64,000 bases of DNA from Escherichia phage arall: sequence record MN850584.1, one strand, 5' to 3'. The notes below the pieces were generated by a model that saw nothing but the letters and a program-made list of their open reading frames with translations, made no database searches and was not told where the DNA came from. Made by a program: the position numbers and the translations under genes. Positions 25,793-62,209 of the stretch are shown in pieces (position 1 is the first letter of the stretch; every line of letters starts with the position of its first letter).

Positions 25793-26605
25793 TTACTTAG
25801 TCAAATGATCTTCTATCATTTTTATGAAAGCAGGATTGCTAAAAGCATCTGCTGCCTTTTCTCTGTAAACAAAGACTCCTCTATCTTCGTAAAGAAGAGT
25901 TTCTTCGTAATTAATTCCTGGGTTAACAACAATCATTTTTGTACCCATATTAAGTGCAGGGAATAATTCCCAATTAAAATTGATAACTTGGTTTGAACAT
26001 CCTACTACAACAACCAAATCTTGCATGGTCAAAGTATCAAACAAGTGAGCCATATCTGCATACAAAGGTGCAGCCTCACCAAAAAATACAACATTAGGCT
26101 TCACCCAGTTATAATCATCTATGTTTATACTATTGTAACCAATATCTACCAGTGTTTTGTAATCTCCAGGATGCATACGGTAAACTACTTCAGGAAGATA
26201 CCCGTGCACGTGAATAACAGAATCCCTGTCCACACCTGCTCGCTCTAGTAGATCATCAACGTTTGTTGTCAAGTTTACTACTTGGTTAGGATATTCCTTA
26301 AACCACTTTGCTATTTGAATATGTGCAGCATTAGGTTGTACATCTTTAAGCTCAACACGTCTTTTGTTATAAAATTCGTGTGTTTTGGCATACAAGTCCA
26401 TACCGTTCTCGTCTACACCACCGACCACTGGAAGATCTGGAGATGTTCTCACACGATAACCTGCTTGGAAAGCTCCAATATCGCAGACCTCTTCTAAGTC
26501 ATATTCTTCCCATAAGGCACGACCACTATCTGTGTCTGTTCGGAACGTTCGAATCCCACTGTCTGCACTTAAACCTGCGCCACTAACAAAAATTACTCTT
26601 CGCAT
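25793..26605 (-). CDS. Sir2 (sirtuin)-family protein, Zn-ribbon-less
   Basis: GAGLSADSGIRTFR (sirtuin GAGxSxxSGIPxFR), TTNVDDL (TQNID), HVHG catalytic His, VVFFGE; no Cys4 Zn module; RBS AAGAGGA. Confidence 0.8.
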   Translation of the reverse strand: MRRVIFVSGAGLSADSGIRTFRTDTDSGRALWEEYDLEEVCDIGAFQAGYRVRTSPDLPVVGGVDENGMDLYAKTHEFYNKRRVELKDVQPNAAHIQIAKWFKEYPNQVVNLTTNVDDLLERAGVDRDSVIHVHGYLPEVVYRMHPGDYKTLVDIGYNSINIDDYNWVKPNVVFFGEAAPLYADMAHLFDTLTMQDLVVVVGCSNQVINFNWELFPALNMGTKMIVVNPGINYEETLLYEDRGVFVYREKAADAFSNPAFIKMIEDHLTK

Positions 26606-27814: not shown

Positions 27815-27952
27815 TTACCCCCAATGTATATGGGAAATTAACCAAAAGATAAATTCCCAAAAACACCAACCAAGAAAAGTTAATGGAATTATAAAAGCTA
27901 TCAGAGCAGTCTTCCAGCCTTTCCACAATGTTTCCACTATTCCTCCATACAT
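27815..27952 (-). CDS. Possible small membrane protein (45 aa) filling Dcm-27813 gap
   Basis: Hydrophobic ORF exactly spanning intergenic gap; weak RBS. Confidence 0.3.
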   Translation of the reverse strand: MYGGIVETLWKGWKTALIAFIIPLTFLGWCFWEFIFWLISHIHWG

Positions 27953-28926
27953 TTAAGAATATGTGCAATGACAGGTATAGTCCAACCGTTGCCTAACATC
28001 TTATATGCTTGTGTGTTACTACTCACTTTAAAGTAATCATCTGGAACACCTTGTAAGCGGCAACACTCTTTAACCGTTAACTTTCTGTAATGTACGCCTT
28101 CACTCAATTTTTCAAAGGCATCTAGATATCTTCCAGGTGGAATGTAAGCTAATAGTACGTCTTTCGGCACAGTCGTGAGGCAACGAGTTTTTTCACTGTC
28201 CTGAACTTCCAAACAATGTACCAAACGATCAGTTTTAGATGTACTACGTTTGCCATTCTCATTAATTCTACGCCCATATATTGCTGCCGGATAAAAAACC
28301 AGTTGTCTGCGACTCTTTTCAAAATACTGTTCTATATTACCACCTTTGGCATAATTTGCATCTATGCAATAAGCCTTATCTCTGTCTACAATACTATCAT
28401 CTTCAATAATATCTTGCAACACTTCATTGGTAATCTCCCAGGGTTTTATTTCCCAGTTGCACCAGTATAAACGTTGTCTATTCTGTGCCGTGAAATCTGC
28501 GGAGTTAATGAATACGGGATCAACACCTAAGTAACTTGTGATCACGTTTTCCCACTCCACTTTCATCTTAACGTTTTCAAGCATGAACTTAACATTAGGA
28601 TTAAACTTTTTAATATGTTCAAGAATTTCAACATATTCGAAGAATAGCTTAGATCGCGGATCTTGAAAGTTCAAACCCTTACCAGAAGAAGAGAAGCCTT
28701 GACACGGACTACCACCTAACAAAAGATCAATTTCTCCCCACGGGATATCCCATTCTCTCCATTTTGTAACATCACCTAACTGAATAATATCTGGAAAATT
28801 TGCTTGGCTTTCAGCTATGGCAAATTTGTCTAATTCTGAAGCATAATATGTATCTACTTCAATACCTGCACTTTTTAGCGCAAGCATTCCTCCTGACATA
28901 CCATCAAAAAGACTTAAAACTTTCAT
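27937..28926 (-). CDS. DNA (cytosine-5)-methyltransferase
   Basis: Motif I LFDGMSGG, motif IV GSPCQGFS, motif VI ENV, C-terminal NGWTIPV-like block. Confidence 0.85.
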   Translation of the reverse strand: MKVLSLFDGMSGGMLALKSAGIEVDTYYASELDKFAIAESQANFPDIIQLGDVTKWREWDIPWGEIDLLLGGSPCQGFSSSGKGLNFQDPRSKLFFEYVEILEHIKKFNPNVKFMLENVKMKVEWENVITSYLGVDPVFINSADFTAQNRQRLYWCNWEIKPWEITNEVLQDIIEDDSIVDRDKAYCIDANYAKGGNIEQYFEKSRRQLVFYPAAIYGRRINENGKRSTSKTDRLVHCLEVQDSEKTRCLTTVPKDVLLAYIPPGRYLDAFEKLSEGVHYRKLTVKECCRLQGVPDDYFKVSSNTQAYKMLGNGWTIPVIAHILKCMEE

Positions 28927-32969: not shown

Positions 32970-33632
32970 TTATTTAATATTCAATTTTGCACAAAGACGT
33001 TGTACCGCTTTGGCATCGAACAAACTCCCACGAATAGTTCTCTTTCCTGATTCATTCAGATGTTTTGCAATCGTCATATATGGCGTTTTACAAGCTCTGT
33101 ATGCAACTAAAGAATCTTTTAAAGAAAGCGCAAACTCTTTTGAGCGTTTTGCTTCTTCCGTTTTCGTATAATCTGTTCTTTTGTATTTAGGGTTTGCTGC
33201 ACCAAGAAGCGTTCCCTTCGCTTTTGCTACTTTAAGGCTCTTCTTAACACGATCAGATATTGCACGAGCCTCTTCTTCTGCCAGAACTGCTAAAATATTT
33301 ATTATCATATTTTCAGCGGAGGGCATAGTTGCTATTCGTACATTAATCATCTCTAACAAGGTTGCAACAGAAGCTGTGTTACGTCCAAGACGGTCAACCT
33401 TAGCAACAACAAGTGTAGCACCTGTTTCTTTGCAAAGATTAACAGCTTTTACAAGCTCTCTACGTTGCTTCCAATCGCCTTTACCCGAATAAAACTCTGC
33501 AAAGCTACCTACAATAGTATAATTTTCTTGTGAATCCAGGAAGCGTTGGATATCTGCTTCCTGTGATTCTATACCATACTGGTTGCCTTGTTGTTTCTTC
33601 TTAGAAAGTCGATGATACAGTACAAACTTCAT
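32970..33632 (-). CDS. Serine recombinase (resolvase/invertase family) with C-terminal HTH
   Basis: YHRLSKKKQ (catalytic Ser region), VAKVDRLGRN hallmark, ~220 aa. Confidence 0.8.
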   Translation of the reverse strand: MKFVLYHRLSKKKQQGNQYGIESQEADIQRFLDSQENYTIVGSFAEFYSGKGDWKQRRELVKAVNLCKETGATLVVAKVDRLGRNTASVATLLEMINVRIATMPSAENMIINILAVLAEEEARAISDRVKKSLKVAKAKGTLLGAANPKYKRTDYTKTEEAKRSKEFALSLKDSLVAYRACKTPYMTIAKHLNESGKRTIRGSLFDAKAVQRLCAKLNIK

Positions 33633-33905: not shown

Positions 33906-34144
33906 TCGTTGTTACGAGCATTTTCAAGAACCTTGACAACTTCTGCATACTCTACAGCTAAACCAGCACACACTTCAGCTTGTTTTGCAATTGCTTGTTT
34001 AAAGAACATAGCGATTGCAACACTCTGTGTTGTGTGAATGTTATCTGCTTTAGTTGATACGTGAAGATCAAAATCTTCTTCATCAAAGGTGAGTTCCATA
34101 GTAACAATAAATTTCTCGGTCATAAAAATGCTCCTCTTAAACAA
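33893..34144 (-). CDS. Hypothetical protein (83 aa)
   Basis: ORF. Confidence 0.5.
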   Translation of the reverse strand: MFKRSIFMTEKFIVTMELTFDEEDFDLHVSTKADNIHTTQSVAIAMFFKQAIAKQAEVCAGLAVEYAEVVKVLENARNNDWEE

Positions 34145-34646
34145 AATAGAAAGGTTGAGTTAAACCCAGCCTGTTTTTTGGGTCGTAGACGTACCAAGCA
34201 TATGCTGTCTTATCAGTACCACCTGCAACAAAAGATGGTCGTTCAGAAAGAACAATCAAATTTGTTGGTGGATTCTGTTTATGGAATTCCCTTCGTTTAA
34301 TAGACTCTAGGAAACCAAGACGCAACAAGTATATGCAAACGTCTGCTTCTTTTAAGCTCTTTTGCAAGAACTCAAGTGCAAGTTTGAATGGGGGATTTGT
34401 GATTATAATATCCGGCTTAGTATACCATTCATGGTTAAAATAATCTTTCCCTTCTTCTAACTCACAATATTCTGATCCTTCTGGAAAATGTTGATAAATT
34501 GCAGCAGCAGCGCCTTTACACGGTTCTGCAAAAATAAAACCTTCTTCTTTAAGGTTATTAAAATCTATTACACTAAATAATGCATTTATACATTTTTGTG
34601 GAGTAGGATAGTAATCAGTTGGTGGACGATCATACTTATTTGCCAC
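34137..34646 (-). CDS. Putative N6-adenine (amino-) DNA methyltransferase, small
   Basis: IIITNPPF (motif IV NPPF) preceded by AEPCKGAAA (AdoMet-binding-like). Confidence 0.6.
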   Translation of the reverse strand: MANKYDRPPTDYYPTPQKCINALFSVIDFNNLKEEGFIFAEPCKGAAAAIYQHFPEGSEYCELEEGKDYFNHEWYTKPDIIITNPPFKLALEFLQKSLKEADVCIYLLRLGFLESIKRREFHKQNPPTNLIVLSERPSFVAGGTDKTAYAWYVYDPKNRLGLTQPFYFV

Positions 34647-35105: not shown

Positions 35106-35759
35106 TTAATTATCAGAGGATACTTTATCAAGTTTTTCAGAGACTGTCAATACTTTTTCTTGTGATTCTTTCATTTCTGCTAAAATACTTTCAGCTTCAT
35201 CACTATCAGGATCACCAGTCAACAGCATACTAATTAGTTGCTCCTTGCTGAAGTTCAGAATATCTTCCGCTGTTAGTTCCAGTTGTTCTTCGATCTCTTC
35301 AATAAAAGTTTCACCACCGGAAAAAGCATCTCGTAGTTTTGCAACTTCCATCGCTTCTTCTGGAGTTGCCCCTGCATCTAAAGCTGCTAAAGCAAAATCT
35401 GCCCCACTACCAACAGCATAATAATCTTCAGTTAAAGGATATGCTCGCGTTGGATTATTACCCTCGTGCATATAAATTTTACCGTCTGGGTGAACAACCA
35501 ATGCCACAAACTCTTCATCTTCTTTATCAGGATCTGACTGGATCACCAAACCTGGGATTGTCTCTTGTGCTGCTTGGCATTGTAAGTTTTGTTCGAACCA
35601 AGAAAAGAAAGTCAGGATAGAAGACAGACGTCCTGCACCACCAACAAGGTAATCCCCAATTTTACGCACTTTCTTGAAATTTAAAGTGTCTACACGACTA
35701 CCTACTGTTACTTTACCATCAGATAGAATTTTGTTATGTGTTGCAATAATTGTTGTCAT
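35106..35759 (-). CDS. HslV-like N-terminal-nucleophile (proteasome beta-type) peptidase
   Basis: MTTII (Thr right after Met), SDGKVTVG, KKVRKI, GGAGRLSSILTFFSWFE, AVGSGADFALAA match recalled HslV blocks; acidic C-terminal extension. Confidence 0.7.
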   Translation of the reverse strand: MTTIIATHNKILSDGKVTVGSRVDTLNFKKVRKIGDYLVGGAGRLSSILTFFSWFEQNLQCQAAQETIPGLVIQSDPDKEDEEFVALVVHPDGKIYMHEGNNPTRAYPLTEDYYAVGSGADFALAALDAGATPEEAMEVAKLRDAFSGGETFIEEIEEQLELTAEDILNFSKEQLISMLLTGDPDSDEAESILAEMKESQEKVLTVSEKLDKVSSDN

Positions 35760-37055: not shown

Positions 37056-37078
37056 AAAGGGGCTTTCGCCCCTTTGTT
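37056..37078. terminator. Hairpin AAAGGGGC-TTTC-GCCCCTTT (copy 2 of 3), bidirectional-type
   Basis: Between lysozyme stop and phoH start. Confidence 0.6.
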
Positions 37079-37578
37079 TAGTTATAAGCGTCTAATGTTC
37101 CAGTTTTAAGTACCTGAATTACACGCTCTGCGCGATTAGGCGTTTGGCGATACCATTTACTTTTACGTAAATTTATAGAGGCTTGAGTATAATATGAATT
37201 ACTCACTAAAGTCAAGCTATTTTTGAAAGATTCTGCACCTTTCAATCCCATTTGAAATACCATATTGATAATAGCCATTTTACGATTAGGACTTACTTTA
37301 TCGTAAATAGGAGATAATATGGTACTTGAATGGATTTGTTGTATCGCTTTCTTTACGTCACTTTCAAAGATTCTTCTAGCTTCCGCTTCAGTAATAACTC
37401 CATTGGTTTTTCTACCTACTAAGTTATCAAGAATGCGTATAGCTTCTGCTTTATCTTTGCGTTTTGTCAGAAGGTGTCCAATACCAACTGTCCAATACCC
37501 TTCGGTATCAGGATATACAGTTAGCTTTAGTCCTTCATCAAAACGTAACATATCAAACACATCAACTACTTTAGCCAT
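37078..37578 (-). CDS. T4-type lysozyme (GH24 endolysin)
   Basis: DMLRFDEGLKLTVYPDTEGYWTVGIGHLLTK...WYRQTPNRAERV closely parallels recalled T4 gpe. Confidence 0.9.
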   Translation of the reverse strand: MAKVVDVFDMLRFDEGLKLTVYPDTEGYWTVGIGHLLTKRKDKAEAIRILDNLVGRKTNGVITEAEARRIFESDVKKAIQQIHSSTILSPIYDKVSPNRKMAIINMVFQMGLKGAESFKNSLTLVSNSYYTQASINLRKSKWYRQTPNRAERVIQVLKTGTLDAYN

Positions 37579-37738: not shown

Positions 37739-38005
37739 TTACTCCGCAATCTGAGCCATGAATTCACGTAGTTCAGAAAAACCTCCTACGTGGGTTAGCT
37801 GTTCACCATCTTCCACAAAAATCTGAGGAAATGTGCGTGGTAGAACACCTGTTTTCTCTAAAACCAGATTCTGAATCTGATCTAAAGAATAGTCTTCATC
37901 TAAGGTAAGATATTTAAAATCCTGTTCACGCTGTTCTAGTAGAATCTTAGCGTTAGTGCAGAAAGGACAATTTGGTTTACCGTAGATAATAAAATTCATT
38001 TTCAC
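37739..38005 (-). CDS. Glutaredoxin-like protein (CPFC active site)
   Basis: IIYGKPNCPFCTNAK, ~88 aa thioredoxin fold size. Confidence 0.8.
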   Translation of the reverse strand: MKMNFIIYGKPNCPFCTNAKILLEQREQDFKYLTLDEDYSLDQIQNLVLEKTGVLPRTFPQIFVEDGEQLTHVGGFSELREFMAQIAE

Positions 38006-38832
38006 TCCTTGTTTAAAAGTATAGTTAAAGTTCTTACAATACCGCTATCAACACTTCGCGGATTTAAAGTAGGATCTGTTTTTAAATAAGATGTTGCTGG
38101 TCTGACTGCTTTGGAATTATAGGTTGAAGCAGATACAGGATTAACTGTAACAGATAAATCTATAACAAGAAATATCTTTCGTGCAAAATCATACCAAGAA
38201 ATATAATCTGCACCTGCATAGTGTACAACTTTACTATTTACACCATCTTTTACAAGTTTAAAAATTGTTTCTGCAAGATCAGGTGCATAAGTAGGACATG
38301 ACAAATGATCACATACTACATTAAATTCTTTTTGACCACCGTTGTAGCGTTCCAACATAGTTTTCAAAAAGTTATGTCCAAATTCACTATAAACAGAAGC
38401 TGTTCTGATAATAAGTGCTGTAGGACAAACTGTTTGTACTAAAGTTTCACCTAATTGTTTACTGTAACCGTAGGTGTTCAAGGGGTTTGTTTTACTATCT
38501 TCTGTGCCAGCAACATGCCCATCAAAAACATAGTCTGTTGAAATATGTACAAACTGTATCAGTAAATCATTACATGCTTTGGCAATGTTTGTTGCACCGT
38601 ATGCATTAACATTTATACAGGTGTTAACATCTTCTTCAGCTTTATCTACTGCCGTGTAAGCCGCACAATTCACAACAACATCAGGCACGTGCTGTACAAG
38701 ACTATTCATAACATCTTTAAAGTTGGTAATGTCTATATCACTTGCTTCAATCAAAATAACATCTTCGGGCGCAACTTTTGCCAAAGACTGTCCTAATTGA
38801 CCTTTTGAACCAAAGATTAAAAATTTTGTCAA
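38002..38832 (-). CDS. rmlD: dTDP-4-dehydrorhamnose reductase
   Basis: N-terminal GxxGQLG Rossmann, HISTDYVFDG, YGYSK. Confidence 0.85.
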   Translation of the reverse strand: MTKFLIFGSKGQLGQSLAKVAPEDVILIEASDIDITNFKDVMNSLVQHVPDVVVNCAAYTAVDKAEEDVNTCINVNAYGATNIAKACNDLLIQFVHISTDYVFDGHVAGTEDSKTNPLNTYGYSKQLGETLVQTVCPTALIIRTASVYSEFGHNFLKTMLERYNGGQKEFNVVCDHLSCPTYAPDLAETIFKLVKDGVNSKVVHYAGADYISWYDFARKIFLVIDLSVTVNPVSASTYNSKAVRPATSYLKTDPTLNPRSVDSGIVRTLTILLNKE

Positions 38833-39383
38833 AATATGATCTCCTTTAGTGTTTTGGCTTGCTGATCTTTTTGTGACAAGATAGGTTTAAAATTAATATC
38901 ATTAAAGATTAAATCAAAACCCCAATCAATATTGATATCTGGATCATTCCACGCAAGACTACACTCTGAAGTCGGATCGTAATATTCTGTACATTTATAT
39001 TCAAAATCAGCAATGTCACTAATCACAACAAAGCCATGAGCGAAACCAGGAGGAATCCAAAATTGTGTTTTATTCTTTTCAGATAAGAGAACACCTACCC
39101 ATTCTCCAAATGTTGGACTACCAACCCTAATATCTACAGCAACATCATAAACTTCACCACGAACACAACGTACTAACTTCCCTTGTGGGTTTTTCTTTTG
39201 AAAATGAAGCCCACGTAGAACTCCTCGAATAGAACGTGAATGGTTATCTTGGACAAAGTTTTGTTTACCTATGTATTGATCATATAAAGCCTGATTAAAA
39301 CTTTCTAAGAAAAAACCACGTTCATCTCCGTAAACGTCAGGTTGAATGATCAACAAATCTTCGATTTTTGTTGCTTGAATCAT
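38829..39383 (-). CDS. rmlC: dTDP-4-dehydrorhamnose 3,5-epimerase
   Basis: GDERGFFLESF and cupin-like blocks, 184 aa. Confidence 0.85.
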   Translation of the reverse strand: MIQATKIEDLLIIQPDVYGDERGFFLESFNQALYDQYIGKQNFVQDNHSRSIRGVLRGLHFQKKNPQGKLVRCVRGEVYDVAVDIRVGSPTFGEWVGVLLSEKNKTQFWIPPGFAHGFVVISDIADFEYKCTEYYDPTSECSLAWNDPDINIDWGFDLIFNDINFKPILSQKDQQAKTLKEIIF

Positions 39384-39395
39384 TTAATTTCCCCT

Positions 39396-40265
39396 TTATT
39401 TTAATTTAAGTAAATACTTACCGTAGTCTGTTTTACTTAAAACCTCTCCAGAACTTTTTACAGAGTCTAAAGTAATCCATTCATTTTTAAAAGCAATCTC
39501 TTCCAGGCATGCAACCTTCATACCTTGTTGCTTTTCTATTGCATGAACAAATTGAGATGCTTCCATAAGACTTTCATGTGTTCCTGTATCCAGCCAAGTG
39601 AAACCTCTTCCTAGTTTACAGACACGTAAAGCCTTTTCTTTCCAGTACATCTCATTTATATCTGTAATCTCTAACTCCCCTCTAGCAGAAGGTTTAACGC
39701 TTTTAGCTTTCTGTACAACAGAATTATCGTAAAAGTACAAGCCTGTGATTGCATAGTTGCTTTTTGGTGCTTTTGGTTTTTCTTCAATACTCACCACTGT
39801 ACCTTCAGAATCAAACTCAACAACACCAAATCTTTCAGGATCATTTACGTGATACCCAAAAATATTAGCTCCACCATTCTTTTCAATATGTTCTTTAGCA
39901 GAATCTAAAATGCTACCAAAACTCTGACCAAAGAATAAATTATCACCTAGCACAAGTGCTACAGAATCTTCACCAATAAAGTTCTCACCAATAATAAACG
40001 CTTCTGCTAAACCTCTTGGGCTATCCTGTATTGCATACTGTAAGGAAATACCAAAAGAAGAACCATCACCTAGAAGATTTACAAAATTAATTTGATCTTC
40101 TGGTGTTGTAATTATTAGTATTTCCCTAATTCCAGAAAGCATTAGGACAGAGAGTGGATAATAAATCATAGGCTTATCATAAATTGGTAATAGTTGTTTA
40201 CTAACCCCTTTAGTAACTGGGTAAAGTCTTGTTCCACTACCACCTGCTAAGATAATACCTTTCAT
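39396..40265 (-). CDS. rmlA: Glucose-1-phosphate thymidylyltransferase
   Basis: [52 protein letters not shown] near-identical to recalled RmlA N-terminus. Confidence 0.92.
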
Positions 40266-40273
40266 ACTCCTCC

Positions 40274-41263
40274 TTAAACTTTATTTTCCCACCACTCTTT
40301 GTTATCTACATACCAATCAATGGTTGAATAAAGTTTTTCTTCAAATGTGCCTTTAGCTTTCCACCCTAATTCCTTTTCAATCTTATAAGGATTCACTTCG
40401 TATCTTAAATCATGTCCAGGTCTATCTGTAACCATTTCAATGAGGCTACAAGCATCTGTTTCAGATGGATACACCGCATCCATATAATCACAAATCATAT
40501 AGATTACATCAATATTAGTTCTAGGGTTTCTGCTCCCAATATTATATGTTTCTCCAGATTTGCCTTTAGTTACTACTAGGTGTAATGCTTCTGCGTGATC
40601 GTCAACGTATAACCAATCTCTTACTTGAAGACCATTGCCATAAACAGGGATTGGTTTATGCATCAAGATATTTGTTATCGTTTTAGGTATTAGTTTTTCT
40701 GGATGATGATATGCTCCAAAATTATTTGAACAATTTGTTATAACTGTCGGAATACCATAAGTACGATGCCATGCTCTTACCAAATGATCGCTTGCAGCTT
40801 TAGATGCAGCATATGGACTACTTGGTTTATAAGGATTCTGTTCTGTAAACGGATAATCCCCTTCTTCCATATCACCATACACTTCATCTGTTGAAATATG
40901 ATGGAACATTTTAAGATTTGATTTATCTCCCATTAAACGAACAGCTTCTAGAAGATTAAATGTTCCAACAATATTTGAATTTATAAAAACACTCGGTGAT
41001 GCTATTGAATTATCTACGTGACTCTCTGCTGCAAGATGCATTATATAATCTGGATTAACATCTGCCACAATCTTAGCAGTTAACTGCGCATTTGTCAAGT
41101 CAACACGACAAAACTTTACATTAGGTGTTTCTGATAAATTTCTAGGGTCTGAAGCGTAACCCCATTTATCTATAACGTAAATATCATTCTTAGTATTTTT
41201 AGCCAGGAAACGAACTACTGCACTTCCAATAAAGCCTAAACCACCTGTTACTAAGTATTTCAT
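40274..41263 (-). CDS. rmlB: dTDP-glucose 4,6-dehydratase
   Basis: [60 protein letters not shown]. Confidence 0.92.
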
Positions 41264-41457
41264 TTAGTCTCCTTCCAATTATTCCCTTCAGTAAAAATAA
41301 TACCTTCATAAAACAACCATCTGGAACCTTTTTCAACAGGAACAGGAATCTCTTCTTCAGTAAAGTTATAAACCTCTCTAGCATCTTCTAAAAGTGATGC
41401 AAATGTTTTTGGACTTACTGTTACGCGAGGAGCATTGATCAGTTGATCTAGCATCAT
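41260..41457 (-). CDS. Hypothetical protein (65 aa)
   Basis: Start at MMLDQ with RBS GGAGGA; stop overlaps rmlB start. Confidence 0.45.
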   Translation of the reverse strand: MMLDQLINAPRVTVSPKTFASLLEDAREVYNFTEEEIPVPVEKGSRWLFYEGIIFTEGNNWKETK

Positions 41458-41470
41458 TCTACTATCCTCC

Positions 41471-41797
41471 TTACCAAACGTGTTGAGAAATAATAGTTTC
41501 CGTTTCAATGTTATATTTTTCAAGAAGTTGTGCGTAGGCTTCTTTTGCATTCTTATTTAGTTGCTCAAGATCTACAGCTATACTTCCTTCGCCACCTTCT
41601 AAATAAATGCCATATATGCAATAAGATTCATCAGCATCATAGAAAGGAGAGATACGGCTTAAATCAAGACCTTCTTGTAAGAACCAATTAAAATCTCCAT
41701 CAAATTCTTCTTCAATTCTAGGATCTTCTCCTACAGCCTCTTCCCATTTATTAAAAGGTGCACCCTGTAACATACGCCATGCAATATCAACCCCCAC
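41471..41797 (-). CDS. Hypothetical protein (108 aa)
   Basis: ORF. Confidence 0.5.
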   Translation of the reverse strand: MGVDIAWRMLQGAPFNKWEEAVGEDPRIEEEFDGDFNWFLQEGLDLSRISPFYDADESYCIYGIYLEGGEGSIAVDLEQLNKNAKEAYAQLLEKYNIETETIISQHVW

Positions 41798-42118: not shown

Positions 42119-42329
42119 CTTTTTCTCCTTTGATAATTTCAAACTTGGCTACACCATTAACTATAATATGACCGCAAGACAGAACTCCTAGCCAATGATC
42201 ACCATTCTTTTTTAAACGTTTACCGTAAACATCACAGAAACCATTCTGTAATTCGGAAGCCTCGTAAGAGGCTCCCTTTTCGAAAACGTCTTTGAAGTCA
42301 GAAATTAATCCAACACAAAGTAGTTTCAT
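42111..42329 (-). CDS. Hypothetical protein (72 aa)
   Basis: ORF. Confidence 0.5.
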   Translation of the reverse strand: MKLLCVGLISDFKDVFEKGASYEASELQNGFCDVYGKRLKKNGDHWLGVLSCGHIIVNGVAKFEIIKGEKDD

Positions 42330-43414
42330 TAAAAGTCTAACTCCTCGTCATCACTTACATCTTTATTTGCTGAATTCAGTTTGTAAGCTGTAATTTGGAT
42401 CTCTTGTGCTGCTGCTTGAATTTGATCTGGATTTAACCAAACATCCATCCAAGGCAGTGGACTTTTCTTCGGTGCACGGAATTTGTGTTTCATTTTCAGT
42501 CTGCGATAGATAGGCGCGGCATTGAAGTAAACCCAAAGTTTGAACAACTCTGCGTTACCACCAACGATAACCCTTCCTTCACTAAACAGATAGTCACACC
42601 AATCTTCCTCTTGTCCAACTACCGTATCAAGAATTTCTGTCAGAACGTCGATATTGTCTTCGTATACTTTTCTCCAAACAGGATCTTTCAGCAGTGCATC
42701 AATAATAGCATAATCCATTTTAACGTGCAATAGTTCATCCAACATAATTTTTTGAATGAGTTTAGCTGCACCTACAAACAATTGCTGCTCTGCTAAGGCA
42801 AATGTTGCAGCAAAAGAGGAGATGAACTGAATACCTTCCAGACCGATAAGTGCAATCATTCCTTTCAGGATCAGTAGACGAAGGTTATCATCCTTCTCAA
42901 TCAGACCTAGAGCATATTTATGTCCTGCCTCTGCCAGATCACTCATTATCTCTTCAACTATACCCATCCTCTGGAAGATTCTTTCATTCTCCATGATCTG
43001 ATCGATAACTTCATTCGGATTAGGGATACACTGACGAATAATTTCAGAATATGTCAAAGCGTGTAAAACTTCCATTTCTGATTGCTTCATCATCATTGCA
43101 CATGCTTCGTTGTTGCTTAAAAATGGTGCAAACAAAGTGATGATTGATTTAGCAAGTGAATCATTTTCCCATTGGAAAGATAGGTTTTTGATCATAACAT
43201 CATAGTTGCTTTTAGAACAAGCTACGAAATCTTTTCGTGTCTGATCTAAGTTTACTTCGTTTTCATCCCAATCTTGCTGTTTTTGTAGTTTGTACAGACG
43301 ATGCATTTCTGGGTATGTTACGTTAATAGAATCAAAAATACCTAACTGTTCTCCCAAAAATACAGGGTAGAAACCTTCTTTGTAAGTGTCGTTGTATAAA
43401 TTAATTGCTGCCAT
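42329..43414 (-). CDS. nrdB: Ribonucleotide reductase class Ia beta subunit
   Basis: Ferritin-like di-iron blocks and size as in NrdB. Confidence 0.88.
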   Translation of the reverse strand: MAAINLYNDTYKEGFYPVFLGEQLGIFDSINVTYPEMHRLYKLQKQQDWDENEVNLDQTRKDFVACSKSNYDVMIKNLSFQWENDSLAKSIITLFAPFLSNNEACAMMMKQSEMEVLHALTYSEIIRQCIPNPNEVIDQIMENERIFQRMGIVEEIMSDLAEAGHKYALGLIEKDDNLRLLILKGMIALIGLEGIQFISSFAATFALAEQQLFVGAAKLIQKIMLDELLHVKMDYAIIDALLKDPVWRKVYEDNIDVLTEILDTVVGQEEDWCDYLFSEGRVIVGGNAELFKLWVYFNAAPIYRRLKMKHKFRAPKKSPLPWMDVWLNPDQIQAAAQEIQITAYKLNSANKDVSDDEELDF

Positions 43415-43776: not shown

Positions 43777-46041
43777 TTACATTTTACAGGCGCTACACCC
43801 CTCGTCTTCAGAATCTTCTTGAGCGAGTGAGGATGCCGATTTTGTTCTGCTATTTAGATAGTACAAAGACTTACCACCAAGTTTTGCAAACTGAAGAATA
43901 TATTGCATTTCTGATTTAATGGATAAACGACCACCTTCCATCTTAGAATAGTCAATCCACTTATCACATGATGCACCTTGATCTAAGAATTTAGTCAACA
44001 GTCCATATGCTTCAGCCATATCTTTATCTGGTGTATCCCAAGCCGATTGGTAAATATCTTTTAGTTTATCGTAGTCTGGCACAATAAACAGAACATTACC
44101 CTTTTGGCTTTGTTTATAAACTATAGTATCACGTACAGGATACACAGAGTTAGTCGTATTACTTACAAGACTACTGGACTCATTCGGAGCAATAGCTGCT
44201 AATACACTATTTCGGATACCACCTTGTGCAATTATATCTTGTCGTAAACCTTCCCAATCCATTTTAAGTTTAAAATTGCCAATATCGTCTACAGCTTTAG
44301 CGTAGGTATCAATAGGCAACCATCCTTCAGGCCATTTGGTTTTATGCATCCATTCTGCATTACCTTTCTCTTTTGCCAAACGAAGAGAAGCTCTTGCTAA
44401 CCAATAATAATGTCTTTCTGCTAATTCGTGAATTAGTTTTTTGCCGTAAGGATCTGAATAAGTAACAAAATTACTTGCCAGATAATGTGCAAGGTTTGTA
44501 ATACCTACACCGATAGACCTACGTGCTTTAGCAGTGATTTCGTTATGTTTAAACGGATACTTCATTGTTTCAATAACATTATCAATAGTCAGAACGGTAT
44601 AATATGCAACATCTTCATATTCTTCTGGTGTAACACGACCAGCTACAATAGAAGACAGGAAGCATAATGCCAATTCTTGATCTTCTGTATTCTCACCTGT
44701 GAAAAGATCAGTCATATTGTGAAATGCTTTCGTAGGTAAGAAAATTTCTTGGCACAAGTTTGACTGGTAAATAACATCCTTAAACGGAGTATGCTTATTA
44801 GCATTATCCGCAAAGAACATATAAATACGTCCTGTCTCTGCTCTTTGTGTAATAATTTCTGCCAGAAGATCTCGTGCTTTTACAAACTTCTTCTTAATTC
44901 GTTTGCGACTAACTTTTTCATATACTTCTTCAAACTCTTCCTCGCTTTTATAAAGCGCCTCATAGAGTTCTGGTGCTTCGTCATAACTGACTAGCATCCA
45001 ATCTTTACCTTTTGCTGCACGGCGCAGGAAAGCATTGTTTACTACAATAGAGTAATCAAGTTTATCTACTCGTTTTTCACTAACAGTAGTTGGATTTTTC
45101 AAACGTACCAGATCTTCAAAATCAGGTTCTAGTATTGTAAACGTTACTGTTGCACTTCCACCACGACTTGCTTGTTTTGATGCTCCAACACTTGTCTCCA
45201 TCCATTTCAGATATGGTAAAAGACCACCGTGAACGATACGGTTGTTCTTAACACCTTGTCCTGTGGCACGGGTTTGAAGGTTAACACCAATACCTGCATT
45301 ATTCAATGTATATTCATGCGCAAGATAGTTAGCAATTGCTAAAGATTCTGCTGTATCGTCTGCTCTAAACAGACAACAAGAAGCACTACCTTTAATCTTA
45401 GTACGCAAAGTTGTTAAATAAGGCGATGGTAAATTAATCTTAAGATCACTTACGTAGGTATATAGACGTTTAATGTCTTCTACTCTGCGATCTTTTGGTT
45501 GAATTTCCATTACCTTCATTGCTACACCAATGAATAAAAACTGTGGTGATTCAAAAACAACATCATTGATCGCATCTTTCACAAGATACTTATCAACCAT
45601 CTGGCGCAGTACGGAATAACCATAAGTTAGGTTTTTATCGTGATTGACAATTTTACCAATCTCAATAATTTCTTCTTCTGTATAATCCATTTTTCCCCAA
45701 TAGCCTTTACTTACAGACATATTGTAGAAATCCAGGAGGGAGGGGATATTGTGATATCCCCCATGAGCCTGTTTATAAATCATACCAAGAAGTAACCGAC
45801 CTGCCATATCACTATATGCCTGATCTTTCTTATCAATACATGCTGCTATCATAGCTTTATGTAAATCACGAGTAGGCACACCGTCGTAACAACGTTTAAC
45901 AGCTTCGAGTTCAATTTCAGACCAATTTAATTTACCAGCAGCAAACTCTGACCATTTACGAAGTTTTTCTGGATTAAATTCTTCTTTCTTGCCGTTTGTT
46001 TTTGTTACATAACGGATAGATTTGCTTAGATACTGAGTCAC
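43777..46041 (-). CDS. nrdA: Ribonucleotide reductase class Ia alpha subunit
   Basis: N-terminal ATP-cone-like region; SNLCQEIFLPT, C-terminal EGCSACKM tail; co-linear with recalled E. coli NrdA. Confidence 0.93.
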   Translation of the reverse strand: MTQYLSKSIRYVTKTNGKKEEFNPEKLRKWSEFAAGKLNWSEIELEAVKRCYDGVPTRDLHKAMIAACIDKKDQAYSDMAGRLLLGMIYKQAHGGYHNIPSLLDFYNMSVSKGYWGKMDYTEEEIIEIGKIVNHDKNLTYGYSVLRQMVDKYLVKDAINDVVFESPQFLFIGVAMKVMEIQPKDRRVEDIKRLYTYVSDLKINLPSPYLTTLRTKIKGSASCCLFRADDTAESLAIANYLAHEYTLNNAGIGVNLQTRATGQGVKNNRIVHGGLLPYLKWMETSVGASKQASRGGSATVTFTILEPDFEDLVRLKNPTTVSEKRVDKLDYSIVVNNAFLRRAAKGKDWMLVSYDEAPELYEALYKSEEEFEEVYEKVSRKRIKKKFVKARDLLAEIITQRAETGRIYMFFADNANKHTPFKDVIYQSNLCQEIFLPTKAFHNMTDLFTGENTEDQELALCFLSSIVAGRVTPEEYEDVAYYTVLTIDNVIETMKYPFKHNEITAKARRSIGVGITNLAHYLASNFVTYSDPYGKKLIHELAERHYYWLARASLRLAKEKGNAEWMHKTKWPEGWLPIDTYAKAVDDIGNFKLKMDWEGLRQDIIAQGGIRNSVLAAIAPNESSSLVSNTTNSVYPVRDTIVYKQSQKGNVLFIVPDYDKLKDIYQSAWDTPDKDMAEAYGLLTKFLDQGASCDKWIDYSKMEGGRLSIKSEMQYILQFAKLGGKSLYYLNSRTKSASSLAQEDSEDEGCSACKM

Positions 46042-56530: not shown

Positions 56531-56935
56531 TTATTGTAGCTTAAGTGAACTGCGAAGACGTTTCTCTTGCTGATCACGAATATGTTGTGGAACCTCATGA
56601 ATTGAGTCGTTACCGTGCCTATTTTCAACAACTAAAGAGATAACTTGATAACCAAACTCTTCAGCAAGAGTTAAATAAGGTTTAAGTTCTTTCTCTGTGG
56701 TTGAAGTGTTAGAGACAATAATCTTTTTAATATTAGATGCCATAGCATCACGAACAATACTCTGACACCATGCGTGGGCTTTACCTACATTTTCTGGCTT
56801 CCAATCGTAAACACCCCTTTCTGTGTAATGGTATTGATCTGCCTCACAGATAGGCCAATAACCTTCAGAAATAATTTCTGCTACTGTAGATTTACCTGCA
56901 CCTGAAACACCACGTAAAATGATAAGTTGTTTCAT
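56531..56935 (-). CDS. P-loop polynucleotide kinase (Pnk kinase-domain-like)
   Basis: IILRGVSGAGKST (Walker A), IIVSNT; parallels recalled T4 Pnk kinase domain. Confidence 0.65.
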   Translation of the reverse strand: MKQLIILRGVSGAGKSTVAEIISEGYWPICEADQYHYTERGVYDWKPENVGKAHAWCQSIVRDAMASNIKKIIVSNTSTTEKELKPYLTLAEEFGYQVISLVVENRHGNDSIHEVPQHIRDQQEKRLRSSLKLQ

Positions 56936-57868
56936 TTAGCCTCCAAAGAAGTTTTCTATTTCTTTACGTCGCTCTTGTGGAGCTAGAGCAGCCCATTGAA
57001 CCTTCGTAAAATTATTTCGAAGCCATTCTATCAAAGTATAATATTCTTCGTCAACAATTTGTTTAGCATTATTTGGGTTGTCCCAAATCATATCCCACTT
57101 CTTATTACCACCACGCATAAGGAACTTCTTAGCAAGATAGTATGGTGACTTAATTTTTAAGAGTAAGTTAAACGGGTAGTTTGTTTCACGAACAACAAAG
57201 CCTTCGTGTCTACAATGTTTAGACATTTCAACAACATCTGAAAATTTAATCATCGGATAAACTTCAGGACGTTTAAATTTTGTAATAGATGCAATCCCAT
57301 CAAGAACACCTTCAGGTAACATGAAACTTGTCCCATCAAGATTTTGAATTCTTGCTCCAATTAAGTATGCGCCTGGTTCTTCTTCGACAATATGTGGATC
57401 AGAAGGATCACAGATTTCAAAAAGGAAAGTTGCTTTTGCACTTTCTGTCCACTTAATGAAATACTCTATGTCATCACACTCGGAAACAATACGGTTCTTG
57501 GCAATAGTTGCAAAGTCTGACTCTAGGCTCCCTGTTGTTGATACAACAAGTTTCCCTTTGTACACACCTACAGATGCCATAAAACCGTTTACTTTACGGA
57601 CAGCATCTACAAATTCATCTCCTGGAAGATCTGTACCATTCTCAAAACGATTAAAGATTTTAGTAAAAGGCCAAATAACAATATTATCTTCTGAGTCAAC
57701 AACCAACCCACGACAATCTAAAAGTCGTTTGTCAACGTTCCACAAGTTATCCCAGAATACATTGTTTTTGTATTTAAGTACAGCAAGACCAGCATACTCT
57801 CCAGATTTAACTTCTTTTTTATGCACTAAACCTTTTGCAATCAGGTCATCACAATTGAACTTAGCCAC
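56936..57868 (-). CDS. RNA ligase-like nucleotidyltransferase (GTG start)
   Basis: RKVNGFMA (motif I KxNG), HEGFVVRE (motif IV), LLLKIKSPYY (motif V); RBS AAGGAG. Confidence 0.55.
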   Translation of the reverse strand: MAKFNCDDLIAKGLVHKKEVKSGEYAGLAVLKYKNNVFWDNLWNVDKRLLDCRGLVVDSEDNIVIWPFTKIFNRFENGTDLPGDEFVDAVRKVNGFMASVGVYKGKLVVSTTGSLESDFATIAKNRIVSECDDIEYFIKWTESAKATFLFEICDPSDPHIVEEEPGAYLIGARIQNLDGTSFMLPEGVLDGIASITKFKRPEVYPMIKFSDVVEMSKHCRHEGFVVRETNYPFNLLLKIKSPYYLAKKFLMRGGNKKWDMIWDNPNNAKQIVDEEYYTLIEWLRNNFTKVQWAALAPQERRKEIENFFGG

Positions 57869-57869
57869 C

Positions 57870-58421
57870 TTAATCTCCTTTGATTATCTTATGATGGTCT
57901 ACAACAATAATATCACGCTTATCCATAATAGAGATGATTTCGTCAAAATGCAAGATTTTCCCGTGTGCATCCCAACCAACATCCAACATTTTCCCATACA
58001 AATGATCAGGGAATGATCCGTGAGAGTGTCCGTGTAGCATGATTGATCCATGCCCTTGTTTATTCCAGGCAGCCATAGGGTAATGACTTAAGACGAAGAA
58101 CAATTTCTGATATTTCACTTCGTCATAATACACAACTTCTCCATACTCTGCAAGCACTTTTCTGTGTTTACTGTAATCATGGTTCCCAACACAGTAAGTA
58201 ATATCCCCTTGGAGACGGGAAGCAATCTTACGGGTATCTTCTTCAGTCCCGAAACAGAAGTCCCCAAGATGGTACATCTTTACTCCTGGTGTTGTGGCAC
58301 ATTTATTCCATGCTTCGATCAGTGCTTCTGTCATATGCTCCATATCTTCCCACGGGCGATATTCAGGAGCAAACTCTCGGATACGTTTGTGCATAAAATG
58401 CAAATCACTTGTAATAAACAT
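57870..58421 (-). CDS. Calcineurin-like metallophosphoesterase (putative RNA 3'-end healing phosphatase)
   Basis: DLHFMH, GDFCFG, GNHD, HGHSHG motifs. Confidence 0.75.
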   Translation of the reverse strand: MFITSDLHFMHKRIREFAPEYRPWEDMEHMTEALIEAWNKCATTPGVKMYHLGDFCFGTEEDTRKIASRLQGDITYCVGNHDYSKHRKVLAEYGEVVYYDEVKYQKLFFVLSHYPMAAWNKQGHGSIMLHGHSHGSFPDHLYGKMLDVGWDAHGKILHFDEIISIMDKRDIIVVDHHKIIKGD

Positions 58422-58783
58422 TAGTATAATCCCTCGCTGAATAGTTCACTGTTGTGACCATTTCTTTCGTAGTTAATTTGTTTGGCGTTATCTGCAATGA
58501 CATAAGCATCTTTGCGACTCCACCAGTTATAATACTGATCAATAAACCCTTGATTATCAGGTAAGCAAAACAGTTTATCGATCAATCCTGCATCTTTTAA
58601 AACATTAAGTTGTGCAGATAGTACAGGATTTGCATGCCTAACACAAGGAATAATTAACTCTTCACCATTGTTAAGAATATACTTGTTCGCAGCGCAGACT
58701 ATAACACGTTGAGCATAGTGATCCTCACCAATCCAAGTGAGAGGTTGGTAACAAATATCATGTTGATTAGTAGCGCACATCAA
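58421..58783 (-). CDS. Hypothetical protein (120 aa)
   Basis: ORF. Confidence 0.5.
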   Translation of the reverse strand: MMCATNQHDICYQPLTWIGEDHYAQRVIVCAANKYILNNGEELIIPCVRHANPVLSAQLNVLKDAGLIDKLFCLPDNQGFIDQYYNWWSRKDAYVIADNAKQINYERNGHNSELFSEGLY

Positions 58784-58938
58784 TTTTCTCCATACTCTTT
58801 TAGTCTATCAGCTAAAAAACTGTAATCAGGAAGTAAAAGATCATTACTCGTATCGCTCCAATTTTCTTCCTCTCTATAGATAAAATGCCCTTCATCCTCT
58901 TCTTGCTCTGACCAGACTGAGTAATGCATAACACCTAC

Positions 58939-59313
58939 TTAATAGTTAACACGTTTAATTTCAACACCATAGGATGCAATAAAATTTTCCTTAGCTAACA
59001 TATATTTACCAGCAGCAGAAGGATTTGATGTATGAACATAGATAGTTTTAAGAGCATCCCATTCACCTGCGTACAACATACATTCTACGTCTAAGAACGC
59101 ATGATATCCTTCTTGATCTTCTCCAAGATCATTATCGAAGTGTATCTCTGAAATATTATTGAAATTATCTTCATCTGAAACAAAAGATGACCAATCCCCA
59201 AAAGATTTTAACCAAATGGCATCCTCATAACCATAATCTTTAGGATCTCTTAAATCGTCTAACCAAAGAATTTTAGCCACTATCAACCCCCTTCCTGTTT
59301 CTCTTCTTTCCAA
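58939..59313 (-). CDS. Hypothetical protein (124 aa)
   Basis: ORF. Confidence 0.5.
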   Translation of the reverse strand: MERRETGRGLIVAKILWLDDLRDPKDYGYEDAIWLKSFGDWSSFVSDEDNFNNISEIHFDNDLGEDQEGYHAFLDVECMLYAGEWDALKTIYVHTSNPSAAGKYMLAKENFIASYGVEIKRVNY

Positions 59314-61315: not shown

Positions 61316-62209
61316 ATGAAAGTTAGTATTCTACATGGTGTTGACTGTTATGTTACTGATGTAGACGTTAAAGTCTTTACATTCTCTGGTGGAGAACAAC
61401 ATGTTCAACTAGATACGAATCTATCAGGTTTCAATCATGCTACAGACAGAATCTTACTCTCTTTAGAAGTAAGATCTGCTAAAGACTTGATGACTTTGGT
61501 TATGACTAAGAATGCATTGGACAATATGCTATATCATAAACCATATTGTGTTGATTTGCTCATGTTGTATGTGCCATATGCACGACAAGACAGAGTGTGT
61601 GAACCTGGGGAAGCATTCGGAGTTAAAGCATTTGCTTCTATAATTAATTCATTAAATTTCTCACGTGTTATCGTTGCTGATCCACATAGTGATGTTACTC
61701 CAGCGGTGTTTGACAGACTCTGTGTAATACCTCAAGAAGAGATTGCTTACGAAACTTTAAAGTGGAAGTTACGTATGGAGAATTTTGCTCTTGTTAGTCC
61801 TGATGGTGGTGCTCTTAAGAAAATATTTAAATTATCTAAGAAAATGTCTTTAGATGTGTTCTGTGCAGAGAAGGTTAGAGATACTGCAACAGGTGCTATT
61901 GTTCGTACAGACATTTCTGTACAGGATTTCAATAAGCGTAACCTGATGATCGTAGATGATATCTGTGACGGCGGTAGAACTTTTATTGAATTGGCTAAAG
62001 TGCTACGTGCTCGTAACGCAGGTAAGATTGAGTTATATGTTACACACGGTATCTTTTCTAAAGGTCTTAAAGAGTTAAGTGAGCACTTTGACTGCATTCA
62101 TTCTCTTAATGTGTGGGAAGATAACATCCAAGAAGATTCCGGTGTTCTTGTTAAGAATCAGTCAGATTTGCAACAACAAATTGTATCTCCATACGTGTGG
62201 AATTTTTAA
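61316..62209 (+). CDS. Ribose-phosphate pyrophosphokinase (Prs)-family protein; candidate ADP-ribose pyrophosphokinase of NARP1-type pathway
   Basis: VPYARQDRV, ADPHS, VSPDGGA, MIVDDICDGGRTFIEL...YVTHGIFSKG parallel recalled Prs; adjacent to NAMPT-like gene. Confidence 0.8.
   Translation: MKVSILHGVDCYVTDVDVKVFTFSGGEQHVQLDTNLSGFNHATDRILLSLEVRSAKDLMTLVMTKNALDNMLYHKPYCVDLLMLYVPYARQDRVCEPGEAFGVKAFASIINSLNFSRVIVADPHSDVTPAVFDRLCVIPQEEIAYETLKWKLRMENFALVSPDGGALKKIFKLSKKMSLDVFCAEKVRDTATGAIVRTDISVQDFNKRNLMIVDDICDGGRTFIELAKVLRARNAGKIELYVTHGIFSKGLKELSEHFDCIHSLNVWEDNIQEDSGVLVKNQSDLQQQIVSPYVWNF

Follow-up and report, generated by a model that had tools for sequence, protein, structure and literature searches.

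A dTDP-L-rhamnose operon and a distant glycosyltransferase block in phi92-like coliphages

The stretch of Escherichia phage arall analysed here (sequence record MN850584.1, 64,000 nucleotides, called the window throughout) carries four adjacent rml genes that are predicted to make deoxythymidine diphosphate (dTDP)-L-rhamnose. A sequence-only reading of the window had described a complete pathway followed by genes for a glutaredoxin and an endolysin, and had named phage DNA hypermodification, glycosylation of virion proteins and remodelling of the host surface as its possible purposes. The operon itself is not the fresh finding that it was taken for, as it has been annotated since phAPEC8/phi92, is present in dozens of GenBank records and was discussed by Olsen 2020 (PMC7552041). 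What is added here is the location and predicted folds of the glycosyltransferases (GTs), their co-distribution with rmlC, a minimal conserved core, and a case from gene content against the DNA hypothesis. In the literature that was searched, the transferases appear only as entries in genome annotations, and no work was found that links them to rml.

The rml operon

The four genes are given below with their NCBIfam matches, the cut-offs being the curated equivalog scores.

40274-41263, minus strand: rmlB, dTDP-glucose 4,6-dehydratase, 329 amino acids (aa); TIGR01181, 441.7 bits (cut-off 365.1)
39396-40265, minus strand: rmlA, glucose-1-phosphate thymidylyltransferase, 289 aa; TIGR01207, 473.2 bits (cut-off 360.65)
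38829-39383, minus strand: rmlC, dTDP-4-dehydrorhamnose 3,5-epimerase, 184 aa; TIGR01221, 260.4 bits (cut-off 155.75)
38002-38832, minus strand: rmlD, dTDP-4-dehydrorhamnose reductase, 276 aa; TIGR01214, 253.8 bits (cut-off 224.05)

The earlier description of rmlB-rmlA-rmlC-rmlD as complete, contiguous and co-oriented was borne out, since all four open reading frames (ORFs) exceed their equivalog cut-offs, and the family matches are, by their scores, far above chance level. The transcript order is B-A-C-D, with intergenic gaps of 8 and 12 bp, and overlaps of 4 bp are found between rmlC and rmlD, between rmlD and the glutaredoxin gene (grx), and between an upstream ORF and rmlB. The start codon of rmlD is TTG, preceded by an AGGAG Shine-Dalgarno sequence. 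RmlA contains the nucleotide-binding loop GGSGTRL at residues 8-14, and RmlB has kept the GGLGFIG NAD site, TDE at 125-127 and Y151xxxK. The RGLHFQ, GKLVRC, FEYKCTEYY and SQKD segments of RmlC align to E. coli RfbC, with the catalytic His/Lys/Tyr/Asp positions kept, and RmlD retains STDYVF and Y121GYSK. The TIGR01214 match spans 251 of the 276 RmlD residues, and RmlD has a shorter C-terminus than E. coli RfbD. Compared with the enzymes of E. coli K-12, RmlB is 52% identical to RfbB, RmlA 64% identical to RfbA over 287 aa, RmlC 57% identical to RfbC and RmlD only 35% identical to RfbD. The four genes very probably constitute a functional dTDP-L-rhamnose pathway, as their family matches and motifs suggest.

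The 5-kb stretch around the rml genes shares 99.7% identity with Escherichia phage inny (record MN850601.1) and is at least 95% identical to 55 phi92-like records (Justusliebigvirus, Stephanstirmvirinae), and phAPEC8-like Phapecoctavirus records match it at lower identity. By these comparisons, the source of the window is a phi92/phAPEC8-like myovirus of the Stephanstirmvirinae. The window maps to inny from about 124054 to the end and then from 1 to about 42675, and the inny genome stands in here for the genome parts that lie outside the 64-kb window. The phage appears to be strictly virulent. Pfam scans of the window and of the rest of inny (ORFs of at least 100 aa) found no integrase, and the genome, which otherwise looks virulent, has only a 220-aa resolvase-type serine recombinase (32970-33632, minus strand; PF00239, 75 bits). 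Under the name 'Campylobacter phage', and with Campylobacter jejuni given as the host, there are five records (including MG065639, MG065645, MG065656 and MG065689) that are 98.7% identical over the 5-kb query and contain the same rml and GT genes; their host label looks doubtful.

When the four rml genes were compared with inny and three other Justusliebigvirus genomes, 82 synonymous and 15 non-synonymous differences were counted, the pooled within-genus ratio of non-synonymous to synonymous rates (dN/dS) was 0.049, and there were zero internal stops. The G+C content at third codon positions (GC3) is about 0.21, which is phage-like, versus 0.28-0.38 in the K-12 rfb genes. In phAPEC8, the gene order and the neighbours of the operon are unchanged; its Rml proteins share 54-72% identity with their counterparts in the window (62.5% for RmlB), and the flanking NrdB shares 84%. 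Judged by the 35-64% K-12 identity, the GC3, the synteny and the dN/dS, the rml genes are a long-resident phage operon under purifying selection.

It might be argued instead that these are dead genes, or copies recently taken from a host, that play no part in the phage, given that rmlA and rmlB are missing from ESCO37, from about 17 further E. coli phage records and from the Klebsiella relatives, and that rmlA is labelled truncated in ECGD1. The sequence-only reading had likewise allowed for inactive pseudo-copies, a possibility opposed by the intact frames, the motifs and the dN/dS of 0.049. The phage-like codon composition and the synteny kept across genera whose rml genes are 54-72% identical also speak against this view, which is hardly credible and, given the selection and conservation data, effectively refuted; recent capture from the host is ruled out by the K-12 identity, the GC3 and the conserved synteny. 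In ECGD1 (KU522583.1 36036-36782), the annotated rmlA has a length of just 747 bp and the 5-kb locus exceeds that of relatives by 4 bases, which would be either a true frameshift or a sequencing error.

Glycosyltransferases elsewhere in the genome

For the Pfam scan of the window, non-overlapping ORFs of at least 100 aa were chosen greedily and joined into pseudo-proteins of up to 1000 aa, which covered 57 ORFs, the four rml genes, nrdA and nrdB being left out as already identified. No GT was found among these 57 ORFs at Pfam sensitivity, in agreement with the earlier statement that none is recognisable in the window. The rest of inny was scanned likewise, minus five tail-fibre/tape-measure ORFs and the genes for terminase, major head, DNA polymerase, primase/helicase, NrdD, NrdG and UvrD. 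This search of the remaining genome, proposed with the sequence-only reading, led to one block of four adjacent GT genes on the minus strand at inny 91381-94557, outside the window, and the scanned inny ORFs contained no further GT. The block is about 70 kb away from the rml operon and is flanked by a SleB-type hydrolase gene and a cluster of Ter genes on one side, and by the primase/helicase and DNA polymerase genes on the other.

inny block 91381-94557, minus strand: inny_132, GT-B type, 314 aa; PF13524 Glyco_trans_1_2, 26.9 bits (gathering score 25)
inny block 91381-94557, minus strand: inny_133, GT-B type, 324 aa; paralog of inny_132, 41% identity
inny block 91381-94557, minus strand: inny_134, GT-A type, 228 aa; invariant DDD and a sub-threshold match to the TAGT family
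inny block 91381-94557, minus strand: inny_135, 187 aa; invariant DxD, with weak GT2-like matches in a few family members

Each of the four matches PHROG families named 'glycosyltransferase' (268-496 bits), and the same label is already given to them in several GenBank records. There is no Pfam match for inny_135 itself, and a profile-profile comparison between the inny_135 and inny_134 families gave no significant result (probability 1.6%). AlphaFold models were made from alignments of database homologs, and these proxies share 77% and 99% identity with the inny proteins. The model for the inny_134 family (pLDDT 89.6) has a minimal GT-A fold with the viral GT A197 of STIV as its top PDB neighbour, and the model for the inny_132 family (pLDDT 94.7) has a GT4-like GT-B fold, which Foldseek relates to GT4 enzymes (MshA, BshA, PglA, SdgB, GtfC, WaaG) at E of about 1e-9 and TM of 0.55-0.65. 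Furthermore, K228, S229, K232 and E235, in the region of an E-x7-E-like C-terminal motif, are invariant in 39 GT-B family sequences. On the strength of the model, inny_132 and inny_133 are GT4-like GT-B glycosyltransferases. A sequence search of PDB chains with inny_132, inny_134 and the family profile of inny_135 gave nothing significant. The fold neighbours are generic GT-A and GT4 enzymes, among which small-molecule, lipid-linked and protein GTs occur alike, and therefore the acceptor cannot be read from the folds. Directly upstream of the GTs, inny 95306-105905 holds a cluster of the tellurite-resistance type, which encodes TerD, a vWA-TerF-like protein, TelA and TerC, together with a ComF-like phosphoribosyltransferase, a HAD hydrolase and a Macro-domain protein.

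The distribution of both blocks was followed by tblastn against 50,697 phage records, counted by organism name.

Escherichia-named records: RmlC 105, GT-A (inny_134) 106, GT-B (inny_132) 106
Campylobacter-named records: RmlC 5, GT-A (inny_134) 5, GT-B (inny_132) 5
Justusliebigvirus records: RmlC 3, GT-A (inny_134) 3, GT-B (inny_132) 3
Phapecoctavirus records: RmlC 3, GT-A (inny_134) 3, GT-B (inny_132) 3
Klebsiella-named records: RmlC 8, GT-A (inny_134) 9, GT-B (inny_132) 10

A copy of rmlC at an identity of at least 60% is present in 131 phage records, and the gene is kept in all seven Stephanstirmvirinae genomes inspected singly (inny, ECGD1, PD06, ESCO9, phAPEC8, ESCO37 and KP13-26). The rV5-like Vequintavirinae evidently have neither the rml nor the GT block, because their many E. 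coli records would lift the Escherichia counts far beyond 105-106; the sheath protein of an rV5-like phage is only 28.6% identical. In distant metagenomic relatives, whose GTs are 47-63% identical, the gene order is a Ter cluster (TerC-TelA-vWA-TerF-TerD), SleB, the four GTs, primase and polymerase. The rml genes never adjoin the GTs in KP13-26 or in two distant metagenomic relatives, and none was found within the 20-kb GT loci.

The losses within this group are informative. RmlA is found in 88 Escherichia-named records versus 105 for RmlC, and ESCO37 shows a clean loss of rmlB and rmlA, also reported in PMC10269720, with rmlC and rmlD intact and the GTs present. Klebsiella phage KP13-26 has lost rmlA and rmlB and is left with rmlC and rmlD alone at the conserved locus, and its GT locus has lost two GTs, the orthologs of inny_133 (65%) and inny_135 (75%) remaining. 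To judge from the losses in ESCO37 and KP13-26, the conserved core is RmlC, RmlD, one GT-B and one small GT. Enterobacteria make dTDP-4-keto-6-deoxyglucose through RffH and RffG for enterobacterial common antigen (ECA), and therefore only the rhamnose-specific steps are needed from the phage. The conserved core also indicates that the needed product is dTDP-L-rhamnose and not an earlier intermediate.

The rml pathway probably feeds the phage GT block, so that the GTs would use dTDP-rhamnose. The earlier inference of a glycosylation target, with transferases to be sought elsewhere in the genome, holds up; the four GT genes were found outside the window and co-occur with rmlC across the subfamily.

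The retention of RmlC and RmlD could also be explained by metabolic control, in which these two enzymes pull host dTDP-4-keto-6-deoxyglucose towards dTDP-L-rhamnose, which in turn inhibits RmlA-type enzymes. The drain of host dTDP-sugars into ECA and O-antigen would be shut down, thymidine triphosphate (dTTP) would be spared for replication, and the GTs would be unrelated. dTDP-L-rhamnose is a feedback inhibitor of RmlA, the rml genes are embedded in a module for deoxynucleotide supply, and RmlC and RmlD are universally kept where RmlA and RmlB are dispensable. However, most genomes keep rmlA and rmlB under strong purifying selection, and these enzymes consume dTTP; the co-conservation of four GTs in the same clade would be left unexplained. 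We know of no precedent for metabolic control through dTDP-rhamnose, and we consider this explanation very improbable.

Candidate acceptors of the rhamnose

We propose, with a probability of roughly 40% for the proposal as a whole, that the rml operon and the GT block together place a rhamnose glycan on a non-DNA acceptor, perhaps a protein. During infection, the operon would convert glucose-1-phosphate and dTTP to dTDP-L-rhamnose, which would be used by the four soluble phage GTs encoded about 70 kb away. The two GT4-like GT-B paralogs, the minimal GT-A and the small DxD protein would together build a short rhamnose-containing glycan. RmlC and RmlD would be the indispensable phage share, because enterobacterial hosts already make dTDP-4-keto-6-deoxyglucose, and RmlA and RmlB, which are lost in some lineages, would only raise the supply. 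The acceptor would most likely not be DNA, and protein could be glycosylated as in mycobacteriophages and giant viruses. Our tentative leading guess for the acceptor is a phage or virion protein, which we rank ahead of the host envelope, with DNA third and the remainder left to other acceptors. It is possible, if doubtful, that the virion of a Gram-negative phage (capsid, sheath or fibres) carries a rhamnose glycan, a variant being sparse, motif-specific rhamnosylation of DNA without a ThyA-type hydroxymethylase or TET. A rhamnose glycan on the virion would, to our knowledge, make this the first glycosylated coliphage particle. Glycosylation of virions by phage GTs is a precedent known from Che8, Corndog and Myrna, as summarised in PMC12363180 and PMC11256854.

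Several observations weigh against this proposal. The GTs are not beside the rml operon in any genome examined, and the co-occurrence of the two lies within one clade and could be produced by shared ancestry alone. Enzymes of family GT4 are, as a rule, retaining and for the most part take UDP- or GDP-sugars as donors. The searches for Che8 homology, for acceptor tails and in the literature provided no positive evidence for protein as the acceptor. BLASTP of the four inny GTs against Che8 gp108-110 found nothing significant (best E = 0.4), and the similarity of inny_134 to mycobacteriophage proteins is weak (25-27% identity, E of about 1e-7) and concerns a different cluster-F cassette (Bobi gp102). 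The literature search also found no reports of glycosylated virions in Gram-negative phages. In addition, the rml and GT blocks both sit among DNA-metabolism and replication genes, and the top Pfam match of inny_134 is the DNA-modifying TAGT family, although this match is sub-threshold and, family-wide, no better than GT2 or GT7C.

Two specific leads were dropped. The mycobacteriophage lead of the Che8 type was abandoned, as inny_134 matches the Bobi gp102 cassette and not Che8 gp108-110. The tail sheath of Justusliebigvirus (inny 57493-58899) has an 11-residue Ser/Asn-rich C-terminal extension, SQNSNSSTVSS, and the C-terminus of the rV5 sheath differs from it; this tail, the one Ser-rich terminal tail found, was dropped as a candidate acceptor site, since it is absent in Phapecoctavirus SKA64 and does not track the system.

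Remodelling of the host envelope is rather unlikely and comes second in our ranking. In this case, the soluble GTs would work on acceptors linked to undecaprenyl or on the lipid A-core, at the cytoplasmic membrane's inner face, and would add rhamnose to, or divert, intermediates of O-antigen, ECA or the lipopolysaccharide (LPS) core, for example to mask receptors on infected cells and debris or to tie up undecaprenyl phosphate. Cell-surface glycans are typically assembled by GT4 and GT2-like enzymes, named bacterial GT-B homologs are labelled 'glycosyltransferase involved in cell wall biosynthesis', and the structural neighbours include PglA, WaaG and TarM. ECA synthesis, furthermore, shares the branch point at dTDP-4-keto-6-deoxyglucose. 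The entry of these phages depends on LPS core and surface glycans (PMC8594841, PMC11990801). However, in the short cycle of a virulent phage, new LPS cannot replace the LPS already present at the surface. The known cases of seroconversion involve temperate phages with membrane GtrA/GtrB/GtrC or acetyltransferases, none of which appeared in the Pfam scans, and the phage does not encode a flippase, a polymerase or an initiating phosphoglycosyltransferase.

Glycosylation of DNA is the explanation that has been put forward in print: Olsen 2020 called the complete rml pathway 'peculiar' and proposed DNA glycosylation, and the idea was repeated in PMC10844046. Rhamnose would be attached to a modified base of phage DNA, either globally or at sparse motifs, for example at oxidised sites of the C5-methylase. 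Two genes of the window bear on this directly.

27937-28926, minus strand: C5-cytosine DNA methyltransferase; PF00145, 146.5 bits
46823-47794, minus strand: ThyX-type thymidylate synthase; PF02511 Thy1, 34 bits (cut-off 24.8)

The location of rml among nrdAB, thyX and tk, and that of the GT block beside primase and DNA polymerase, would suit a role in DNA modification, as would the presence of a phage-encoded C5-methylase. Moreover, inny_134 and 16 of 18 family members match TAGT, the family of TET-associated DNA glycosyltransferases, and the PHROG of the T-even beta-glucosyl-HMC-alpha-glucosyltransferase gives a weak match. The TAGT matches are, however, below the gathering score (24.1 bits versus 27.5 for inny_134), cover the DxD half only and are equalled by weak GT2 and GT7C matches; none of the GTs matches the T4 AGT or BGT families, and the T-even DNA GTs are missing from the top structural neighbours. 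Among the scanned ORFs of at least 100 aa, neither a ThyA-family hydroxymethylase nor TET/JBP nor anything else that would supply an acceptor hydroxyl was found, and the only thymidylate synthase found is ThyX. The C5-methylase implies ordinary cytosine in the phage DNA, and an N6/N4 DNA methylase is encoded outside the window at inny 83320-84051; such methylases are typical of phages with ordinary bases. Maffei 2021 (PMC8594841) found Justusliebigvirus and its relatives 'exceptionally susceptible' to restriction-modification (RM) systems of types I, II and III, despite the putative dTDP glycosylation machinery. Gene content (ThyX, no hydroxymethylase or TET, and the phage's own methylases) and RM sensitivity argue against bulk hypermodification of the DNA, and this candidate, listed first in the sequence-only reading, is the least supported of its three; we regard attachment to DNA in any form as improbable. 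A literature search for liquid chromatography-mass spectrometry of DNA, glycoprotein staining or restriction digests in this group found no accessible data, and the Durham-collection papers on DNA modification do not cover Justusliebigvirus members. A small protein with an NPPF motif and no Pfam match, counted here as a further putative DNA methyltransferase of the phage, is encoded at 34137-34646 on the minus strand.

Gene neighbourhood and known systems compared

The operon is surrounded by the following genes.

37078-37578, minus strand: T4-type GH24 lysozyme; PF00959, 42.2 bits (cut-off 22.3), E 1e-10
37739-38005, minus strand: glutaredoxin (NrdC-like), CPFC motif, 4-bp overlap with rmlD; Grx matches at E 3e-14, under the equivalog cut-off
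41260-41797, minus strand: two small conserved ORFs of about 65 aa and 108 aa from the ORF list (inny_43 and inny_44), upstream of rmlB
42329-43414, minus strand: nrdB; ORF, annotated in inny, phAPEC8 and KP13-26
43777-46041, minus strand: nrdA; ORF, annotated in inny, phAPEC8 and KP13-26

Related records label the gene at 37739-38005 as glutaredoxin 1, and it occupies the same place in phAPEC8, ESCO37 and KP13-26. For the GH24 lysozyme gene, the labels in other records vary between lysozyme and baseplate hub, and a hairpin (37056-37075) directly follows the gene. A glutaredoxin and a lysozyme thus follow rml; the lysozyme, named as the endolysin in the sequence-only reading, is only a candidate for that role, as a secreted SleB-like hydrolase is also encoded in the genome. 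The small upstream ORFs are translationally coupled to rmlB. The 108-aa ORF is 94% identical in phAPEC8 and adjoins the operon in all genomes examined, including those without rmlB and rmlA, and neither small ORF has a family match. A terminator-like hairpin (43768-43754) lies between nrdA and the next gene, and a consensus scan for promoters and terminators found nothing above chance (39 promoter-like sites versus 41.6 expected). From nrdB through rml to the glutaredoxin gene, the tightly packed run looks like one long transcription unit for nucleotide metabolism. An HslV/proteasome-like protease subunit is encoded at 35106-35759 (minus strand) with a weak Pfam Proteasome match, its ortholog being labelled HslV in ESCO37 and KP13-26.

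Other genes of the window touch on NAD, RNA repair and further functions.

167-1360, plus strand: 397-aa protein that combines four CapR-homology zinc-ribbon repeats (126 bits) with a T5orf172 (GIY-YIG-like) domain
1361-1912, plus strand: NADAR gene
25793-26605, minus strand: SIR2-family gene
56531-59313, minus strand: RNA-repair-like block with an AAA_33 kinase, an RNA ligase (inny annotation), a metallophosphoesterase and a cREC_REC (cyclic-phosphate processing receiver) protein
61316-62209, plus strand: gene like phosphoribosyl pyrophosphate (PRPP) synthetase; Pribosyltran, Pribosyl_synth and Pribosyltran_N matches
about 62290-64000, plus strand, truncated at the end of the window: gene like nicotinate/nicotinamide phosphoribosyltransferase (annotation of inny_82)

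The RNA-repair-like block suggests tRNA repair against anticodon nucleases. The last two genes resemble NARP1, a phage pathway of NAD+ reconstitution that counters NAD-depleting defence systems.

The Stephanstirmvirinae, to which phi92, phAPEC8 and the BASEL phages Bas60-62 belong, are coliphages of broad host range and frequent candidates for therapy and biocontrol. About 7 kb of their genome is given over to a sugar pathway and four transferases, the rml genes are under strong purifying selection, and the popular explanation by DNA modification conflicts with restriction sensitivity and gene content. With the GTs located and a minimal core defined, the question becomes a small one that can be put directly to the test in a phage open to genetics. 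If the virion proved to be the target, particle glycosylation would extend from actinobacteriophages to coliphages, and a glycan coat could affect gut survival, immune recognition and mucus binding, which is relevant to phage therapy.

In comparison with known systems, the closest counterpart of the pathway itself is bacterial RmlABCD (RfbABCD), which has the same four families, the same catalytic motifs and the same predicted product, dTDP-beta-L-rhamnose. Here, however, the genes belong to a virulent phage, their order is B-A-C-D instead of the B-D-A-C of E. coli, and they lie in a nucleotide-metabolism operon and not in a polysaccharide cluster, with no adjacent rhamnosyltransferase. The glycosylation of hydroxymethylcytosine (hmC) in T-even phages, including the arabinosyl-hmC of RB69, offers a literature analogy, since it also combines a virulent E. 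coli myovirus with soluble GTs near DNA-metabolism genes. The T-even phages, however, rely on host UDP-glucose and a dCMP hydroxymethylase, whereas the present phages have ThyX, no hydroxymethylase that we could find, hypersensitivity to RM and GTs outside the AGT/BGT families. Seroconversion (GtrABC, Oac) resembles one of the rival explanations, in that phage genes touch host surface glycans, but it is a trait of temperate phages that employ a membrane flippase, a bactoprenol GT, a serotype-specific GT and host UDP-glucose, and these families are absent from our Pfam scans.

The mycobacteriophages (Che8 gp108-110, Corndog gp38, Myrna) similarly encode soluble GT cassettes outside the structural module, and inny_134 has weak similarity to GTs at the locus equivalent to the Che8 cassette in other cluster-F phages. 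Those cassettes decorate capsid and tail proteins, and the mycobacteriophages concerned do not encode a nucleotide-sugar pathway; in the present group, no conserved Ser/Thr-rich acceptor tail was found. Giant viruses share the combination of virus-encoded synthesis of a rhamnose nucleotide sugar with GTs, and they glycosylate their own virions: Mimivirus makes UDP-L-rhamnose for its fibril glycans, chloroviruses have capsid glycans, and giant-virus GTs are among the structural neighbours of our GT-A model. They differ in their eukaryotic hosts and in their UDP-rhamnose route, which uses UGD and a bifunctional epimerase/reductase in place of RmlABCD.

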